Shown piece after piece: positions 14,784-53,886 of a stretch of 64,000 nucleotides of DNA. The position numbers and the translations under genes are program-made. Origin of the DNA: Escherichia coli. Its GTDB lineage: Bacteria > Pseudomonadota > Gammaproteobacteria > Enterobacterales > Enterobacteriaceae. The stretch lies in the NCBI RefSeq assembly GCF_017348835.2, contig NZ_CP071375.1. One strand, 5' to 3'. The first letter of the stretch is position 1, and the number at the start of each line of letters is the position of its first letter. The notes below the pieces were generated by a model. The model was given only the letters and a program-made list of their open reading frames with translations, made no database searches and was not told where the DNA came from.

Positions 14784-15575
14784 TTAGAGATCAATTTCCT
14801 GCCGTTTTACCTGTTGCCAGACTTCTTCCATTGTTTCGAGGTCAACACCTGTCATTTCCAGTCCACGCGCGGCAACAATACGCTCCACTTCGCGAAAACG
14901 ACGCTCGAATTTTTCGTTCGCTTTTTGCAATGCGATTTCCGCTTTTGTCCCTAAATGACGAGCCAGATTGACCGTGGCAAACAGCAGATCCCCCATTTCC
15001 TCCTCCAGTTTAGCCTGGTCGACAACAGCCTGCCGCGCTTCGTACATCACCTCGTCGATCTCTTCGTAGACTTTATCGACTACCGGACCAAGCGTCGTCC
15101 AATCGAAGCCAACGTTGGCGCAACGTTTCTGGATTTTTTGCGCACGCATTAAAGCCGGTAAACTACGAGGAATATCGTCCAGCGCCGAATGCTGCGCTTT
15201 CTGCGCGCGCTCTTCGGTTTTGATTTGCTCCCAACGGGCAAGCACTTCACTACTGTTTTCGGCAGAACTGTCAGCAAAAACATGCGGATGGCGACGCTCT
15301 AATTTATCGCTAATCGCAGCGCAAATATCATTAAAGTCAAAGCGCCCTTCTTCCTGAGCCATTTGGGCGTAAAACACCACCTGGAACAGCAGATCGCCGA
15401 GTTCACCGCGCAGATCGTCAAAATCTTCACGGGCGATGGCGTCCAGCACTTCGTAGGTTTCTTCAAGGGTGTAAGGCGCAATGGTGGCAAATGTCTGCTC
15501 TTTATCCCACGGGCAGCCGTTTTCCGGGTCGCGCAGGCGCTGCATAATAGTGAGCAAACGGTCGATTTGATTCAT
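14784..15575 (-). CDS. mazG: Nucleoside triphosphate pyrophosphohydrolase MazG
   Basis: 263-aa ORF MNQIDRLLTIMQRLRDPENGCPWDKEQTF... Confidence 0.95.
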   Translation of the reverse strand: MNQIDRLLTIMQRLRDPENGCPWDKEQTFATIAPYTLEETYEVLDAIAREDFDDLRGELGDLLFQVVFYAQMAQEEGRFDFNDICAAISDKLERRHPHVFADSSAENSSEVLARWEQIKTEERAQKAQHSALDDIPRSLPALMRAQKIQKRCANVGFDWTTLGPVVDKVYEEIDEVMYEARQAVVDQAKLEEEMGDLLFATVNLARHLGTKAEIALQKANEKFERRFREVERIVAARGLEMTGVDLETMEEVWQQVKRQEIDL

Positions 15576-15645
15576 TAGAATGTCCTGAAAATTGCGGGTC
15601 CGTCAGGTGGAAACCTGTGACCAGAATAGAAGTGAGTGAGTAACA

Positions 15646-15981
15646 CTACCCAATCAGTACGTTAATTTTGGCTTTAATGAGTTGTAATTCCTCTGGGGCA
15701 ACCGTTCCTTTCTTCGTTGCTCCTCTTGCCCGCCAGGCGATACTTTTTACCTGATCAGCTAACGCTACGCCATCACGTTCCTGACCGGATAAAACAACTT
15801 CGAACGGATATCCTTTTGATTGCGTTGTACAAGGAACACACAGACACATACCTGTTTTGTTGTTGTACATGAAAGGACTCAGGACAACAGCTGGACGATG
15901 TCCAGCTTGCTCGCTACCTTTTGTCGGGTCAAAATCAACCCAAATCAGATCGCCCATATCGGGTACGTATCGGCTTACCAT
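15646..15981 (-). CDS. mazF: Type II toxin MazF (mRNA interferase, ACA-specific endoribonuclease)
   Basis: 111-aa [39 protein letters not shown]... Confidence 0.95.
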   Translation of the reverse strand: MVSRYVPDMGDLIWVDFDPTKGSEQAGHRPAVVLSPFMYNNKTGMCLCVPCTTQSKGYPFEVVLSGQERDGVALADQVKSIAWRARGATKKGTVAPEELQLIKAKINVLIG

Positions 15982-16229
15982 TACCAGACTTCCTTATCTT
16001 TCGGCTCTCCCCAGTCGATATTCTCGTGGAGGTTTTCCGGCGTGATGTCGTTGACCAGTTCAGCAAGCGTAAATACGGGCTCTTTACGCACTGGCTCAAT
16101 AATTAATTTGCCATCCACCAGGTCAATCTTCACTTCATCATCAATATTCAGATTGAGCGCCTGCATTAACGTAGCCGGGATCCGCACCGCCGGTGAATTT
16201 CCCCAACGCTTTACGCTACTGTGGATCAT
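15981..16229 (-). CDS. mazE: Type II antitoxin MazE
   Basis: 82-aa [34 protein letters not shown]...; stop overlaps mazF start by 1 nt. Confidence 0.95.
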
Positions 16230-16255
16230 AACCCTTTCCTCAAACCGCTATCATA

Positions 16256-16292
16256 TGTAGATACAGTATATATCAATCTACATTGTAGATAC
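16256..16292 (-). promoter_or_regulatory. mazEF promoter-operator region (palindrome TGTAGAT-N13-ATCTACA plus second TGTAGATAC copy)
   Basis: Inverted repeat at 16256-16282 and direct repeat of TGTAGATAC at 16284-16292, immediately upstream of mazE; matches the described autoregulated mazEF operator. Confidence 0.5.
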
Positions 16293-16306
16293 GAGCAAAT
16301 TTCGGC

Positions 16307-18541
16307 CTAACTCCCGTGCAACCGACGCGCGTCGATAACATCCGGCACCTGGTTGAGTTTACCCAGCACGCGACCCAGCACCTGCAGGTTGTAAATCTCA
16401 ATGGTCATGTCGATGGTCGCCAGTTGCTGTTTGGTGTCGCTACGGCTGGCAACGCCAAGCACGTTCACTTTCTCATTGGCGAGAATGGTCGTGATATCAC
16501 GTAACAACCCACTACGATCATTAGCCACCACGCGGACCACCAGCGAATATCCGGCGGAGTAGCTCTCGCCCCATACCGCGTCAACAATGCGTTCTGGCGC
16601 ATGGGAGCGCAGTTCCGCCAGTTGTTCGCAATCGGCGCGGTGTACTGAAATACCGCGCCCCTGGGTAATGAAGCCGACAATCTCATCTCCAGGAATCGGC
16701 TGGCAGCAACGCGCGATGTGGTGCATCAGGTTACCGACACCTTCAACCACCACACGACCGTTATCTTTACTGCGGTTTTGCGGCGTGTAACTTTTTTGCT
16801 GAAGTTGCTTCAGCGCGGCGGCGTCCTGCTCTTCGGCACTCGGCTTATTAAATTGCGATTGCAGGAAGTTCACCATCTGATTGAGACGGATATCCCCGCC
16901 ACCAATCGCCGCCAGCAACTCGTCGACATCATTGAAGTTGTAACGCGGCAGCAGATGTTTTTCTGCTTCTTTCAGGCTGATCCCCAGATGTTCCAGCTCG
17001 TCGTCAAGGATTTGCCGCCCAGCCAGAATGTTTTTGTCACGGTCCTGTTTACGGAACCAGGCGTGAATTTTCGAACGCCCACGGCTGGTTGTGACGTAAC
17101 CGAGGTTTGGGTTTAACCAGTCACGGCTGGGGTTCGGCTGTTTCTGGGTGATAATTTCAATCTGGTCGCCCATCTGCAGCTGGTAGGTGAACGGCACAAT
17201 GCGCCCGCCAATTTTTGCCCCGATGCAGCGGTGTCCGACATCACTGTGGATGTGGTAAGCGAAGTCCAGCGGCGTTGATCCCGCAGGCAAATCAACGACA
17301 TCACCTTTCGGCGTAAAGACATACACCCGGTCGTCAAACACCTGACTACGTACTTCGTCGAGCATTTCGCCGGAATCAGCCATCTCTTCCTGCCACGCAA
17401 TCAGTTTACGCAGCCAGGCAATCCGGTCTTCATGTCCCGAACGTGCGCCGCCAGCAGCCGCGCCCTCTTTATATTTCCAGTGCGCAGCAACACCCAACTC
17501 TGCATCTTCATGCATCTGTTTGGTGCGGATTTGGATCTCAACGGTTTTTCCACCCGGCCCCAGAACCACGGTATGAATAGACTGATAACCGTTTGGTTTC
17601 GGGTTAGCGACGTAATCGTCAAACTCATCCGGCAGGTGGCGATAGTGAGTGTGCACTATCCCCAGTGCGGCATAACAATCCTGTAAACGCTCGGCGACAA
17701 TACGTACCGCACGCACATCAAACAGCTCATCGAAGGCGAGGTTCTTTTTCTGCATTTTGCGCCAGATGCTGTAGATGTGTTTCGGACGACCATACACTTC
17801 AGCTTTAACGCCTTCAGCTTTCATCTCAGCGCGCAGATGACCGACAAACTCTTCGATATAGTGTTCGCGGTCGAGACGGCGTTCATGCAACAGTTTTGCG
17901 ATGCGTTTGTATTCGGTCGGGTGGAGATAACGGAAGCAGTAATCTTCCAGCTCCCATTTCAGTTGCCCAATCCCAAGACGGTTTGCCAACGGCGCGTAGA
18001 TATTGGTGCACTCTTTTGCCGCCAGTACGCGTTCATCTTCCGGCGCATCTTTTACTTCACGCAGATGAGCAATACGCTCCGCCAGTTTGATGACCACGCA
18101 GCGAAAATCATCGACCATCGCCAATAACATCCGGCGAACGTTATCGACCTGTTCGGAGGAAACAGAATCAGTGTGCGTCGCTTTCAGTTGGCGGATCGCC
18201 GCCATATCACGCACGCCGTGAATAAGGTTAACGACCGACTTACCGACGCTCTCACGCAGCACATCTTCGCTGACTACGTTGGCATCCGCCAGAGGGAAAA
18301 GCAGCGCCGCCCGCAGCGTGTCAATGTCCATACTTAATGTCGAGAGGATCTCCACCATCTCAACACCACGCCACAATAACAGACTGGCATCCGGATGCCC
18401 CTGCGTCTGTTGCAGACAATACGCCCAGGTTTCGGCTAAGCACTCACACGACTTCTGGCTGGTAATACCCAGACTTGCGATCCATTTTTCCGGATCAAAT
18501 TCACCAGCCTTATTGATATGTGCACTTCTTACCGCAACCAT
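16307..18541 (-). CDS. relA: GTP pyrophosphokinase / (p)ppGpp synthetase I
   Basis: 744-aa ORF MVAVRSAHINKAGEFDPEKWIASLGITSQKSCE... Confidence 0.97.
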   Translation of the reverse strand: MVAVRSAHINKAGEFDPEKWIASLGITSQKSCECLAETWAYCLQQTQGHPDASLLLWRGVEMVEILSTLSMDIDTLRAALLFPLADANVVSEDVLRESVGKSVVNLIHGVRDMAAIRQLKATHTDSVSSEQVDNVRRMLLAMVDDFRCVVIKLAERIAHLREVKDAPEDERVLAAKECTNIYAPLANRLGIGQLKWELEDYCFRYLHPTEYKRIAKLLHERRLDREHYIEEFVGHLRAEMKAEGVKAEVYGRPKHIYSIWRKMQKKNLAFDELFDVRAVRIVAERLQDCYAALGIVHTHYRHLPDEFDDYVANPKPNGYQSIHTVVLGPGGKTVEIQIRTKQMHEDAELGVAAHWKYKEGAAAGGARSGHEDRIAWLRKLIAWQEEMADSGEMLDEVRSQVFDDRVYVFTPKGDVVDLPAGSTPLDFAYHIHSDVGHRCIGAKIGGRIVPFTYQLQMGDQIEIITQKQPNPSRDWLNPNLGYVTTSRGRSKIHAWFRKQDRDKNILAGRQILDDELEHLGISLKEAEKHLLPRYNFNDVDELLAAIGGGDIRLNQMVNFLQSQFNKPSAEEQDAAALKQLQQKSYTPQNRSKDNGRVVVEGVGNLMHHIARCCQPIPGDEIVGFITQGRGISVHRADCEQLAELRSHAPERIVDAVWGESYSAGYSLVVRVVANDRSGLLRDITTILANEKVNVLGVASRSDTKQQLATIDMTIEIYNLQVLGRVLGKLNQVPDVIDARRLHGS

Positions 18542-18588
18542 CGTCCTCTCCTTTAGGGACCAGACCTGCCGAAATCGGCAAATCGCAA

Positions 18589-19890
18589 CTATTTAACGCG
18601 CGAGAAAAGTACCATCGATTCCAGATGTCCCGTGTGTGGGAACATATCCAGCATCGCCAGTCGCGCAATGGTATATCCTGCTTTTAATAACGCTTCGCTA
18701 TCCCGAGCCAGCGTTGCAGGGTTACAGGATACATAAACTATACGAATAGGTTCCAGTTTTATAATTTGCTGCATAACACCTGCGGCACCTGCTCGCGCGG
18801 GGTCCAGCAACACTTTATCGAAGCCGTTTTTCGCCCACGGCTGCTTTGTGACATCTTCTTCAAGATTTTCGTGATAAAACGTTACATTCTGTAAGCCGTT
18901 AAGACGCGCATTCTGCTGGCCTTTTTCCACCAGCGCCGGAACACCTTCTACACCCACCACACTGGCAGCTTGTGTCGCCAATGGCAGTGTAAAGTTGCCC
19001 ATACCGCAGAACAGATCCAGTACGCGATCTTCAGGTTCCACATCCAGCCATTCCAACGCACGCGCTACCATTTTTTGGTTCACACCCGCATTAACCTGAA
19101 TAAAATCGCGCGGGCTAAAAGTTAAGCGCAACCCGTTTGAGTCATACCATGGCATCTCACCAGAGACGGTTTCGAGTATCTCACTATCGGGGGCAAGATA
19201 CAGATCCAGGCCTTCAGAATGCGAAAAGCGTTCCAGTTTTTCGCGATCTGCCGAACTTAGCGGTGCGGTATGGCGCAAAATCATCAGCGTGCCGCTGGTT
19301 GCCTGTACCAGTTCAACATGACCAAGATGGCGCATAGCTTGTAAGCTGCCCAGGCATGCCCTGACTTTGGGCAGCAATGCTTCAAGTTGGGGCACTAAAA
19401 TGGGGCATTGTTTAACGTCGACAATGTCACTGGAGCCCGCTTTGCGAAACCCCATCTGAAGTTGCTGTGTTTTCGGTAAGTAGTTCAGACTTAAACGCGC
19501 GCGACGGCGATAGCCCCAGGGAACATCGGCGATCACTTCAGAGACTTCGTGTTTCATTAATCGGGCAAGTGCCGCACTTTTGCTTCGCTGCTGTAAATCC
19601 ACGCTGGCGTGTTGTTGCTGACAGCCGCCGCATACGCCAAAATGAGGACAGCGTGGCGTTTCGCGTTCCGGGCTATCGCTTAACCGGCGTACGACTTTAG
19701 CGCGGGCATACTGTTTTTTATCTTCAGTAACAGTAACTTCCGCGTTTTCCTGCGGCAATAATCCGGGGATAAATAGCGTTTTGCCGTTATGTCGCGCCAC
19801 GCCCTGACCAAAAGAGTCGAGGTCGTTGACTGAAACGGTTATGATCTGACGCGTCGTCGTGCGTCGTTTTGCAGAGTAGAATTGCGCCAT
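18589..19890 (-). CDS. rlmD: 23S rRNA (uracil1939-C5)-methyltransferase
   Basis: 433-aa ORF with TRAM domain and 4-Cys cluster ([14 protein letters not shown]) and SAM-MTase fold. Confidence 0.95.
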
Positions 19891-25636: not shown

Positions 25637-26502
25637 CTTATTGCCCCGCGACAGGTTTCAGCTCGATACGCTTGATATCGCCCACCAGCACCAGGTAGCT
25701 CAGTACCGCGATTAAGGCATGAACACCAACATAAATCAGCGCCCCATTAAACGAGCCAGTCGTGCCAACGATATAACCAATTGCGATTGGCGTGACGATG
25801 CCAGAAATGTTACCGAACATGTTGAACAGGCCACCGGAAAGACCGCTGATCTCTTTTGGCGCGGTATCTGCCATTACTGCCCAACCCAGCGCCCCAATGC
25901 CCTTACCGAAGAAGGCCAGCGCCATAAAGCCGATGATCATCCACTCAACGTTGACGTAGTTGCAGAACACCATCACCATCGACAGCAACATGCCCATTAC
26001 GATCGGTGTTTTACGCGCAATGTTCAGCGATCCCGTGCGGCGCATCAGCCAGTCGGAAATAATCCCACCCAGCACACCACCGATAAAACCACAAACCGCC
26101 GGAACGGAAGCCACAAAGCCCGCTTTCAGAATCGACATCCCACGCGCCTGCACCAGATAAACCGGAAACCAGGTAATGAAAAAGTAAGTCAGGGCGTTGA
26201 TACAGTACTGACCGATATAAACGCCGATCATCATCCGTGACCCGAGCAGCTGTTTGATCTGCCCCCACTTCACGCTGAACGGCACTTTAACTTTGGTGTT
26301 TTGCTGATCCATATTGATCAGCGCGCCACCCGCGGCGATGTACTCCAGCTCTTTCTGATTTACCCCCGGATGTTGATTTGGCTCGTGGATGACTTTCAAC
26401 CAGATAAAGCTGATGACAATCCCCAGACCGCCCATAAAGAAGAAGACGTGAACCGCCCCGGAAATCCTGGAGACTAAACTCCCTGAGAAAGAGGTAAACA
26501 GG

Positions 26503-26829
26503 ATGACTAAAAATACTCGTTTTTCCCCCGAAGTCCGTCAGCGGGCGATTCGTATGGTTCTGGAAAGTCAGGATGAATATGACTCACAGTGGGCGGCAAT
26601 TTGTTCCATTGCCCCAAAGATTGGCTGTACGCCGGAGACTCTGCGTGTCTGGGTTCGCCAGCATGAGCGGGATACCGGGAGTGGTGATGGTGGACTCACC
26701 ACCGCTGAACGTCAGCGTCTGAAAGAGCTGGAACGTGAAAATCGTGAACTGCGCCGCAGTAACGATATCCTTCGCCAGGCTTCCGCTTATTTTGCGAAGG
26801 CGGAGTTCGACCGCCTCTGGAAAAAATAA
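26503..26829 (+). CDS. IS3-family transposase OrfA (HTH DNA-binding, leucine-zipper-like C-terminus)
   Basis: 108-aa [29 protein letters not shown]...; ends at an A6 run (26821-26826), the presumed -1 frameshift site. Confidence 0.9.
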
Positions 26830-27716
26830 TGCCACTGCTGGATAAGCTGCGTGAGCAGTACGGGGTCGGACCGGTATGCAGCGAACTGCATATTGCCCCG
26901 TCAACGTATTACCATTGTCAGCAACAGCGACATCATCCGGATAAACGCAGTGCCCGTGCGCAGCACGATGACTGGCTGAAGAAAGAGATACAGCGCGTAT
27001 ACGATGAAAATCACCAGGTATACGGTGTGCGTAAAGTCTGGCGTCAGTTGTTACGGGAAGGTATCAGAGTGGCCAGATGCACTGTGGCACGTCTCATGGC
27101 AGTTATGGGACTTGCCGGTGTTCTCCGGGGTAAAAAGGTCCGCACTACCGTCAGCCGGAAAGCCGTTGCCGCATGCGACCGCGTAAACCGTCAGTTCGTG
27201 GCAGAACGTCCAGACCAGTTGTGGGTGGCTGATTTTACCTGGGTAAGCACATGGCAGGGCTTCGTTTATGTGGCGTTCATCATTGATGTGTTCGCCGGAT
27301 ACATCGTGGGATGGCAGGTCTCATCATCCATGGAAACAACATTCGTGCTGGATGCACTGGAGCAGGCGTTGTGGGCCCGTCGGCCGTCCGGCACAATCCA
27401 TCACAGTGATAAAGGTTCTCAGTATGTATCGCTGGCCTACACGCAGCGGCTTAAGGAAGCCGGATTACTGGCATCAACAGGGAGTACTGGCGACTCGTAT
27501 GACAACGCGATGGCTGAGAGCATCAATGGTCTTTACAAAGCGGAGGTAATACACCGTAAGAGCTGGAAAAACCGTGCAGAAGTGGAACTGGCCACACTCA
27601 CGTGGGTGGACTGGTATAACAATCGACGATTGCTGGAAAGGCTGGGCCATATTCCTCCGGCAGAAGCAGAAAAAGCTTATTATGCTTCCATCGGAAATAA
27701 TGATCTGGCAGCCTGA
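26829..27716 (+). CDS. IS3-family transposase OrfB (DDE integrase-core / rve domain)
   Basis: 295-aa ORF in -1 frame relative to orfA; ...YGVRKVWRQLLREGIRVARCTVARLM...HSDKGSQYVS...YDNAMAESINGLYKAE. Confidence 0.9.
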   Translation: MPLLDKLREQYGVGPVCSELHIAPSTYYHCQQQRHHPDKRSARAQHDDWLKKEIQRVYDENHQVYGVRKVWRQLLREGIRVARCTVARLMAVMGLAGVLRGKKVRTTVSRKAVAACDRVNRQFVAERPDQLWVADFTWVSTWQGFVYVAFIIDVFAGYIVGWQVSSSMETTFVLDALEQALWARRPSGTIHHSDKGSQYVSLAYTQRLKEAGLLASTGSTGDSYDNAMAESINGLYKAEVIHRKSWKNRAEVELATLTWVDWYNNRRLLERLGHIPPAEAEKAYYASIGNNDLAA

Positions 27717-28629
27717 GTTCACAGATAAAACACTCTCCAGGAAACCCGGGGCGGTTCAGACGTGTGACCAGCCCACTTCATGCGTCAGCCAGCCCATAAT
27801 CGGCGCGAAGATCACCGTTGCGAAGTATTGAGCGGAGTTAAAAATCGACACCGCCGTTCCCCTTTCCTGCGCCGGAAACCAGGCCGCAACAATGCGACTG
27901 TTGCCGGGGAAAGATGGCGCTTCAGCAAGCCCGACCAGGAAGCGCAGAGTAAACAGGGCAACGATAATGCCGAATCCACTAAAGATATCGACGAAGCCTT
28001 GCAGCAAGGTAAACATCGACCAGATAAAGATCGACCAGAAGTAGACGCGTTTTGAACCAAAACGATCCAGCAACCAACCACCAGGGATCTGCCCGATAAC
28101 ATAAGCCCATGAGAAGGCAGAGAACACATAGCCCATTCCCACGGGATCAAGGCCGATATCTTTGGCCATTTCCGAACCGGCAATAGAAAGCGTAGCGCGG
28201 TCGCCGTAGTTGAAGGATGTGACGATAAACAACATCACCACTATCCAGTAACGAGCATTCGTGCGTTTTTCCACACTGCTCGCAGCCTGACTTAAAGAAC
28301 TCATTGTTGCACTCCTGAAAATTCGCGTTAGCCACGCTCACTCTGGACTGCGACATCGCCAGGAAATCAGAGGTGACGTAGGGTGTTTTTTGCCGTTTTT
28401 ATAGGTCGTTCGCCGAATACGGCGCGTGTTTATATCTGGCAATAGCAGTATAAAAAGCGCGCCATAGCGGCTCACCGTGCAACAACACAACATTAATGCG
28501 TTCAATGAGGCCCGATTTTGGCATTAGCCCTGGACGGTGGAATCCACTTCACGGAAATGAAAACAAGAACAAGAAAGGAAGGGTTAAAACGAAGAAATAA
28601 AGAAGAGTATGAAATGGATCGCTTGACTC

Positions 28630-30317: not shown

Positions 30318-30360
30318 AAAGCAACCTCAATAAGAAAAACTGCCGCGAAGGATAGCAGGA

Positions 30361-30719
30361 ATAAAAAAAGGGAGCACTGTATTCACAGTGCTCCCGGTTC
30401 GTTTCGCAGCATTCCAGCTACTTTTGTTGCTCCCTGCTCATCCTTGACAACTTTTCCTCTGGCCTTGCGGCCAATCGTTCATCCTGAACTATTGCTTCCT
30501 GCTCACACCACCCCGATGTGATACTTCATCCTGAAGTGTCCCTGGCCTTCCTGACCCACCGAATCATCCTGACCGGTTCTCATTCTCCATCCTGGAGGTG
30601 TCCTTTAACGCGTCCTGCGTCATCCTCTTCGCTTCATCCAGAAGCCTTTCCCTGAAACACCATCCTGGTGTGTCCTTCAGAAGTGTCATCATCCTGATGT
30701 TCACTTCGTTGTCTGACTC
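30361..30719 (-). ncRNA. csrB: CsrB small regulatory RNA (CsrA-sequestering)
   Basis: Minus-strand transcript with about 18 GGA-containing motifs (CAGGATG/AGGATG family, seen as CATCCTG on the plus strand), ending in hairpin GGGAGCACTG-loop-CAGTGCTCCC plus U-tract (30363-30395); 5' end approximate. Confidence 0.85.
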
Positions 30720-48899: not shown

Positions 48900-49105
48900 A
48901 CTTCCTGAGCCGGAACGAAAAGTTTTATCGGAATGCGTGTTCTGGTGAACTTTTGGCTTACGGTTGTGATGTTGTGTTGTTGTGTTTGCAATTGGTCTGC
49001 GATTCAGACCATGGTAGCAAAGCTACCTTTTTTCACTTCCTGTACATTTACCCTGTCTGTCCATAGTGATTAATGTAGCACCGCCTAATTGCGGTGCTTT
49101 TTTTT
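48900..49105 (+). ncRNA. gcvB: GcvB small regulatory RNA (Hfq-dependent, GU-rich R1 region)
   Basis: Divergent from gcvA; begins ACTTCCTGAGCCGGAACGAAAAGTTTTATCGG, contains GTTGTGATGTTGTGTTGTTGTGTTTG, ends at hairpin GCACCGC-ctaatt-GCGGTGC plus T8 (49098-49105). Promoter -35 TTGAGC (48865-70), -10 TATAGT (48888-93). Confidence 0.85.
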
Positions 49106-52064: not shown

Positions 52065-52247
52065 GGGCGAGGTTATCCCTCACCCTAAACGCATAAATGC
52101 CTGATGCGCTACGCTTATCAGGCCTACATAACTCCTGCAATATTTTGGATTTGCATGATTTGTAGGCCGGATAAGGCGTTCACGCCGCATCCGGCATGAA
52201 CAACGCGCACTTAGTCAATAATCAGGATGTGAGGTTACCCCTCACCC
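52065..52247. repeat. Composite REP cluster (BIME-like): two REP units bracketed by two small GC hairpins with near-identical sequence
   Basis: Hairpin GGGCGAGGTTATCCCTCACCC (52065-85); REP GCCTGATGCGCTACGCTTATCAGGC (52099-123); REP GCCGGATAAGGCGTTCACGCCGCATCCGGC (52166-95); hairpin GTGAGGTTACCCCTCACCC (52229-47). Confidence 0.7.
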
Positions 52248-53589: not shown

Positions 53590-53666
<77 letters not shown>

Positions 53667-53699
53667 ATTAAAATTTGATGAAGTAAAGCAGTACGGTGA

Positions 53700-53776
<77 letters not shown>

Positions 53777-53809
53777 ATCAAATTTGATGAAGTAAAAGCA
53801 GTACGGTGA

Positions 53810-53886
<77 letters not shown>

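Follow-up and report, generated by a model that had tools for sequence, protein, structure and literature searches.

A textbook mazEF toxin-antitoxin operon between relA and mazG on an Escherichia coli chromosome

No chromosomal toxin-antitoxin module was described before the mazEF operon of Escherichia coli, and few have been studied better; a further copy of it has little discovery value. MazF is an endoribonuclease with single-stranded RNA as its substrate and ACA as its cleavage site (PMC5888573), and the C-terminal tail of MazE binds and neutralises it (PMC4333400). The two proteins assemble into a heterohexamer, MazE is degraded by ClpAP or Lon, and MazF cleaves its own message, in which two ACA sites lie in mazE and nine in mazF (PMC5888573). 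The antitoxin degraded in this way is less stable than the toxin (PMC5888573; PMC8749433). Transcription is repressed by MazE and by the MazE-MazF complex with conditional cooperativity (PMC4333400; PMC4803016). The operator covers 47 bp and offers three sites, c, a and b, to MazE dimers (Zorzini et al., PMC4333400); it was named the 'alternating palindrome' by Marianovsky et al. (2001) and overlaps the promoters P2 and P3, further upstream of which lies a Fis site from which Fis activates the promoter (review PMC4803016). The levels of the MazE and MazF proteins fell about two-fold, and the balance between the mazE and mazEF transcripts shifted, when the promoter of the antisense RNA aMEF was mutated (PMC8749433). 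The downstream gene mazG has been reported as the third cistron of a mazEFG transcript (review PMC4803016), but this transcript was not reproducibly detected by the authors of the aMEF study (PMC8749433). The molecular mechanism is secure, but the physiological role is disputed: mazEF has variously been credited with programmed cell death, a reversible arrest of growth under stress, persistence and defence against phage (PMC7167474).

The copy treated here lies in a 64-kb stretch of DNA that was analysed as a whole (hereafter the window). Judged from its sequence, it is almost certainly the chromosomal E. coli mazEF (chpA) type II toxin-antitoxin operon in intact, wild-type form. The locus is already known and is an ordinary textbook operon; the original prediction of a well-known mazEF system is confirmed, both by identity to the crystallised proteins and by the published operator, and the locus leaves the list of candidates. 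That description was incomplete rather than wrong, omitting the ATATAT-containing operator site a, the antisense RNA aMEF, the gene mazG and the presence/absence polymorphism of the cassette, all four of which are already known.

Toxin, antitoxin and operator

Table 1. Features of the mazEF locus in window coordinates.
Feature	Position	Strand	Basis
mazG, nucleoside triphosphate pyrophosphohydrolase	14784..15575	-	PF03819, 134.5 bits; annotation
mazEF cassette, extent relative to mazEF-less E. coli	15612..16306	-	alignment with empty-site loci L004 and L005
mazF, toxin, 111 aa, PemK/MazF-family ACA-specific endoribonuclease	15646..15981	-	ORF, Pfam, NCBIfam, PDB identity
aMEF (ameF, b4844), antisense RNA of about 400 nt	15941..16340	+	K-12 annotation 2911051-2911450, offset 2895110
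mazE, antitoxin, 82 aa	15981..16229	-	ORF, Pfam, NCBIfam, PDB identity
Putative mazF Shine-Dalgarno (AAGGA), within the 3' end of mazE	15991..15995	-	read from sequence
Putative Shine-Dalgarno GAGGA for mazE, 7 nt upstream of the ATG	16237..16241	-	read from sequence
mazEF operator-promoter region ('cab' fragment, 'alternating palindrome')	16245..16295	-	published oligonucleotides (PMC4333400), mapped
Operator site b	16253-16271	-	mapped oligonucleotides of PMC4333400
Downstream copy of the 9-nt direct repeat TGTAGATAC	16256..16264	+	repeat search
Operator site a, with ATATAT at 16268-16273	16263-16276	-	mapped oligonucleotides of PMC4333400
Operator site c	16274-16292	-	mapped oligonucleotides of PMC4333400
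Central arm ATCTACAT (+ strand), pivot of the alternating palindrome	16276..16283	.	inverted to both flanking copies
Upstream copy of the 9-nt direct repeat TGTAGATAC (GTATCTACA in gene sense)	16284..16292	+	repeat search

The open reading frames are exactly those of the original prediction, which had given a MazE of 82 residues and a MazF of 111 residues overlapping by 1 nt: base 15981 is common to both genes within a TAATG stop/start (Table 1). The antitoxin gene stands directly upstream of the toxin gene, and the two are small, overlapping and on the same strand, the layout of a type II operon. The Pfam searches proposed as a check recovered both expected families above their cut-offs. MazF matched PF02452 (PemK_toxin) with 84.8 bits over residues 10-109 (cut-off 23.1) and the equivalog NF007386, 'endoribonuclease MazF', with 227.4 bits over residues 1-111 (cut-off 120). 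MazE, whose N-terminal part is an AbrB/SpoVT-type DNA-binding domain and whose C-terminal tail binds MazF, matched PF04014 (MazE_antitoxin, the AbrB/SpoVT-type domain) with 52.9 bits over residues 6-51 (cut-off 24.7) and the equivalog NF007312, 'antitoxin MazE', with 196.2 bits (cut-off 113).

Comparison with solved structures showed that MazF is 100% identical over its full length to the E. coli MazF chains of PDB entries 3NFC and 5CK9, and MazE likewise to the E. coli MazE chains of 1MVF and 1UB4 (chain C). Residues 1-82 of MazE are those of the chain crystallised with MazF in 1UB4, the C-terminal tail included. The active-site residues E24, R29 and T52 are all present in the translated MazF, R29 and T52 being residues that we take to belong to the active site of the E. 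coli enzyme. The variant E24A is inactive (PMC5888573).

At the nucleotide level, K-12 and the window agree throughout mazE, the operator and the ribosome-binding sites, and the sole difference within mazE, mazF and the operator is found at codon 93 of mazF (window base 15703), where the window has ACG and K-12 has ACA, both encoding Thr. This synonymous change removes one of the nine MazF self-cleavage sites in mazF, so that the ACA counts of mazE and mazF are 2 and 8 in the window, against 2 and 9 in K-12. Among the matches listed, 100% identity over the mazEF locus was seen only in the pig isolate PE164, which of the 5426 complete genomes matched best (100% over 15560-16330); this pig-associated lineage carries a mazF allele with one self-cleavage site fewer, which would be a small refinement of a known system.

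The putative Shine-Dalgarno sequence of mazF lies 9 nt upstream of the TAATG of the mazE-mazF junction, and the overlap, together with the placement of GAGGA and AAGGA, suggests that translation of mazF is coupled to that of mazE.

The palindrome and direct repeat that had been described in the promoter are both present, as two copies of TGTAGATAC that flank a central inverted arm. This arm (16276-16283) is a perfect 8-nt inverted repeat of 16255-16262 and a perfect 7-nt inverted repeat of 16284-16290. The 9-mer occurs exactly twice in the whole window, against a chance expectation of 0.27 per window, and two or more matches to it arose anywhere in the window in 2 of 100 shuffles. A three-arm layout was defined as two copies of a 7-mer within 60 nt that enclose its reverse complement. 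The window contains three of these, and 20 Markov-1 random sequences of equal length contained 0.4 on average; the direct repeat at the mazEF site is a 9-nt exact one, and the other two sites were measured as 7-mers. The repeat anatomy of the operator is beyond chance.

Mapping of the published oligonucleotides showed that the 51-nt 'cab' fragment aligns to 16245-16295 on the minus strand with a single mismatch, at the last base of the oligonucleotide, and the relA-mazE spacer is identical to that of K-12 over its entire length. The three-arm repeat (16255-16292) coincides with the c, a and b MazE sites, in line with the autoregulation of a type II operon. By sequence match, the repeat and palindrome of the promoter are the published mazEF operator, and MazE binding has been measured on identical operator DNA (PMC4333400). 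A consensus promoter scan of 15400-16700 did not recover the published P2 and P3, and promoter- and terminator-like matches in this interval occurred at the rate seen in shuffled sequence. The one scan match near the operator was discarded because it overlaps the mazE start codon.

Others have demonstrated the steps of the mechanism with proteins and DNA of the same sequence as in the window. Accepting this transfer, MazF would act as a dimeric, ribosome-independent endoribonuclease, and cleavage of single-stranded RNA at ACA may be carried over to it from the identical K-12 protein (PMC5888573). MazE would be a labile dimeric antitoxin whose disordered C-terminal tail wraps MazF, leading to an inactive MazF2-MazE2-MazF2 complex in which one MazE dimer sandwiches two MazF dimers. 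Through its N-terminal AbrB-type domain, MazE would bind the adjacent sites c, a and b of the 47-bp operator over P2/P3, and Fis would activate the promoter from its site further upstream. MazF at balanced ratios would strengthen this operator binding and in large excess would abolish it, so autorepression would depend on the toxin:antitoxin ratio. Once MazE had been degraded by ClpAP or Lon, free MazF would cleave bulk mRNA including its own message, and aMEF, with its start inside mazF, would tune the mazE:mazEF transcript ratio and the protein levels.

Antisense RNA, mazG and the surrounding chromosome

The window is chromosomal E. coli DNA and runs collinear with positions 2894973-2957795 of K-12 MG1655, to which it is about 98% identical. 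Over 5.5 kb around mazEF the alignment contains no indels and 82 substitutions, which validates the conversion used for this stretch (K-12 coordinate = window coordinate + 2895110). RefSeq labels on identical DNA name mazF, mazE, relA and mazG. The position downstream of relA that the original prediction had given to mazEF agrees with these labels: relA, encoding 744 residues with the Pfam domains HD_4, RelA_SpoT, TGS and ACT, ends at 16307 and is followed after 77 nt by mazE; mazG starts 70 nt downstream of mazF. The claim that mazEF is the only toxin-antitoxin locus of the window also agrees, at the level of annotation, with the collinear K-12 region. The module differs from K-12 at one position in 661 nt, and its flanks at about 1.5% of positions; a special meaning of this low SNP density was considered and dropped, since the alignment also contains other runs of 500-600 nt without a single SNP, among them 16790-17321 and 18188-18799.

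The aMEF stretch, which spans the 5' end of mazF, the whole of mazE, the operator and the 3' end of relA, aligns to K-12 with no differences. Upstream of its annotated 5' end, a candidate promoter can be read with a weak -35 element (TTGCTC, 15907-15912) and a -10 element (CAAAAT, 15930-15935) separated by a 17-nt spacer; this pair is too weak to appear in the list of the consensus promoter scan. aMEF has no Rfam family. A search of 15500-16450 at a permissive E-value returned no Rfam match, and the whole-window search at the gathering score placed nothing within the mazEF locus.

The spacer between mazF and mazG folds no better than its shuffles (z = -0.5). Because no good terminator lies between the two genes, the operon may read through into mazG, a reading with which the sequence is consistent and against which the failure to detect a mazEFG transcript reproducibly (PMC8749433) stands.

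Several observations concern other parts of the window. gudP is split by a 1310-bp IS3-family element (26449-27758) that is bounded by the inverted ends TGAACCGCCCCGG and CCGGGGCGGTTCA and by a GACG target duplication (26445-26448 and 27759-27762). It encodes OrfA (26503-26829, HTH_Tnp_1) and OrfB (26829-27716, rve), with an Rfam match to the ALIL frameshift pseudoknot at 26784-26900. OrfA presumably resembles IS629/IS1203, and a related record is annotated as 'IS3-like element IS1203 family transposase'. A query spanning this insertion was covered to at least 80% in 3 of the 5426 complete genomes: the pig isolates F2_81 and PE164 gave contiguous matches at 99.8-99.9% identity, and WP7-S17-ESBL-04 matched in three pieces at 97.0%.

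The putative transporter gene yqcE carries a 73-nt deletion relative to K-12 at 6235/6236 and is split into ORFs of 215 aa (5620-6267) and 176 aa (6294-6824); on this reading frame evidence it is probably a pseudogene in the strain of the window. The ygcE-queE intergenic region (8963-9415 on the plus strand, and 8968-9299) aligned to K-12 at only about 94% identity, with many gaps and an overlapping block, a pattern that suggests repeats. Pfam gave no match to a 150-aa ORF in this region, for which no feature is entered in the K-12 table. RNA genes were located at 30360-30719 (-), 48900-49105 (+), 53590-53883 (+) and 52120-52162 (-). The RNAs expected from the K-12 region are present, namely CsrB, GcvB and the three tandem initiator tRNA-Met genes (metZWV), and a match to the Rfam sRNA family ES036 (CssrF) adjoins mltA.

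Presence or absence of the cassette and physiological role

Searched with mazEF alone at a threshold of at least 95% identity, 4415 of 5426 complete E. coli genomes (81%) carry the module, always on the chromosome and with the annotation mazE and mazF. A query made from the relA-mazG junction of a mazEF-less strain found the empty junction in 1007 genomes (19%), so that occupied and empty sites account for 5422 of the 5426. In the empty allele, exemplified by loci L004 and L005, relA and mazG are 95 nt apart. Alignment with these loci shows that the cassette begins with the first base behind the relA stop codon and ends approximately 36 nt upstream of the mazG ATG. Fraikin et al. described relA-mazG as an undisturbed operon in mazEF-less strains such as UTI89 (PMC7167474). 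Since relA and mazG join cleanly in 19% of E. coli genomes, mazEF appears to be an accessory cassette inserted there and not to belong to the core of the relA operon. The count supports an accessory cassette over an integral part of the stringent response, a conclusion that the literature already holds in qualitative form.

The empty spacer (L004:2517-2611, and likewise in L005) corresponds to 15612-16306 of the window. In the 1007 genomes without mazEF it contains a strong hairpin with a 12-bp stem, GCUGGAUAUGGC/GCCGUAUCCAGC, and the whole spacer folds at -33 kcal/mol (z = -5.2 against shuffles); the hairpin sequence is absent from the mazEF-bearing allele. The cassette stands in place of about 60 nt that form this hairpin. 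It is conceivable, though unlikely, that the insertion thereby removed a structured relA-mazG element and rewired mazG onto the mazEF promoter, which would be a small refinement of the known system if true.

As to function, the role is most likely a reversible growth inhibition with some anti-phage benefit, borne by an addictive accessory cassette. The biallelic distribution fits best an addictive accessory cassette with a conditional benefit, most plausibly against phage, and fits less well an integral arm of the stringent response.

A purely selfish reading is a credible, if tentative, alternative. The cassette would persist mainly because its loss frees the stable toxin; it would have no dedicated host function, and its link to relA would be positional. 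The near-complete partition of genomes into occupied sites and intact relA-95 nt-mazG sites points in this direction, as do the sharp junctions at the relA stop codon and before mazG, the undisturbed operon of strains without mazEF and the report that deletion of five toxin-antitoxin systems caused no fitness defect under stress (PMC7167474). It is harder to reconcile with a module that is always chromosomal and very uniform (at least 95% identity), with its layered regulation by Fis, aMEF and self-cleavage, or with the modest protection against RNA phages that has been reported (PMC12151602). Selfishness of this kind is compatible with the molecular mechanism and is no alternative to it.

Phage defence as the role in itself is possible but on the unlikely side. 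Infection would perturb the supply of MazE, and free MazF would degrade phage and host RNA and limit the yield. Native mazEF moderately lowered susceptibility to two RNA phages, and ACA is under-represented in the genomes of RNA coliphages (PMC12151602); deletion of mazEF raised P1 infection loads (as cited in PMC7167474), and infecting T4 phage modifies MazF (PMC4803016). However, only moderate effects have been reported, and the annotated neighbours of mazEF in K-12 (relA, mazG, pyrG and eno) are housekeeping rather than defence genes. Neither MazE nor MazF matched any defence model in a PADLOC search, a library result that neither supports nor excludes a defence role.

Altruistic programmed cell death is improbable. 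It holds that ppGpp made by RelA, or other stresses together with the extracellular death factor peptide, stop mazEF transcription, after which MazE decays and MazF kills most of the cells. The place of mazEF directly downstream of relA suits this proposal, as does the series of studies summarised in PMC7167474. The same review speaks of 'total disagreement' with data for a bacteriostatic, reversible and ppGpp-independent activation and notes that strains with multiple toxin-antitoxin deletions have no phenotype (PMC7167474), and the pairing with relA is not obligatory, about 19% of E. coli genomes having relA without mazEF. A decayed or inactive remnant, considered since chromosomal toxin-antitoxin modules often decay, has a negligible chance given full-length reading frames and a K-12-identical operator and ribosome-binding sites, and a decayed or divergent allele is refuted by the 100% identity to the active, crystallised proteins.

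Comparison with known systems

The closest system is mazEF of K-12 (chpAI/chpAK, b2783/b2782), which shares the locus and its flanks, with relA upstream and mazG downstream. Proteins, operator, relA-mazE spacer and aMEF stretch are identical between the two; K-12 differs at codon 93 of mazF (ACA there), with nine ACA sites in mazF against eight in the window, and its mazF-mazG spacer differs from that of the window by five substitutions.

The E. coli chpBIK system (ChpS/ChpB) consists of an AbrB-type antitoxin and a paralogous toxin of the PemK/MazF type. The proteins of the window gave weak NCBIfam cross-matches of 55 and 35 bits to ChpB and ChpS, for which the cut-offs are 129 and 101, and a chpB identity was ruled out by these far lower scores. 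chpB is presumably a different chromosomal locus.

At high identity, the cassette of the window was found on chromosomes only and at no plasmid site. A diverged mazEF-like pair was seen on seven E. coli plasmid records, at 60-80% (about 70%) DNA identity over part of the query; on plasmid NZ_CP046026.1 (61242-61489) it is annotated as MazF and an AbrB/MazE/SpoVT protein. These seven records are the only non-chromosomal relatives of mazEF observed.

The plasmid systems parD/pem (Kis-Kid of R1 and PemI-PemK of R100) share the toxin fold and the antitoxin-first logic of the operon. Kid was found in the PDB search with MazF (E = 7.6e-09), and the Pfam family PemK_toxin is common to both. They differ from the locus described here in being distant in sequence, plasmid-borne and engaged in post-segregational killing.
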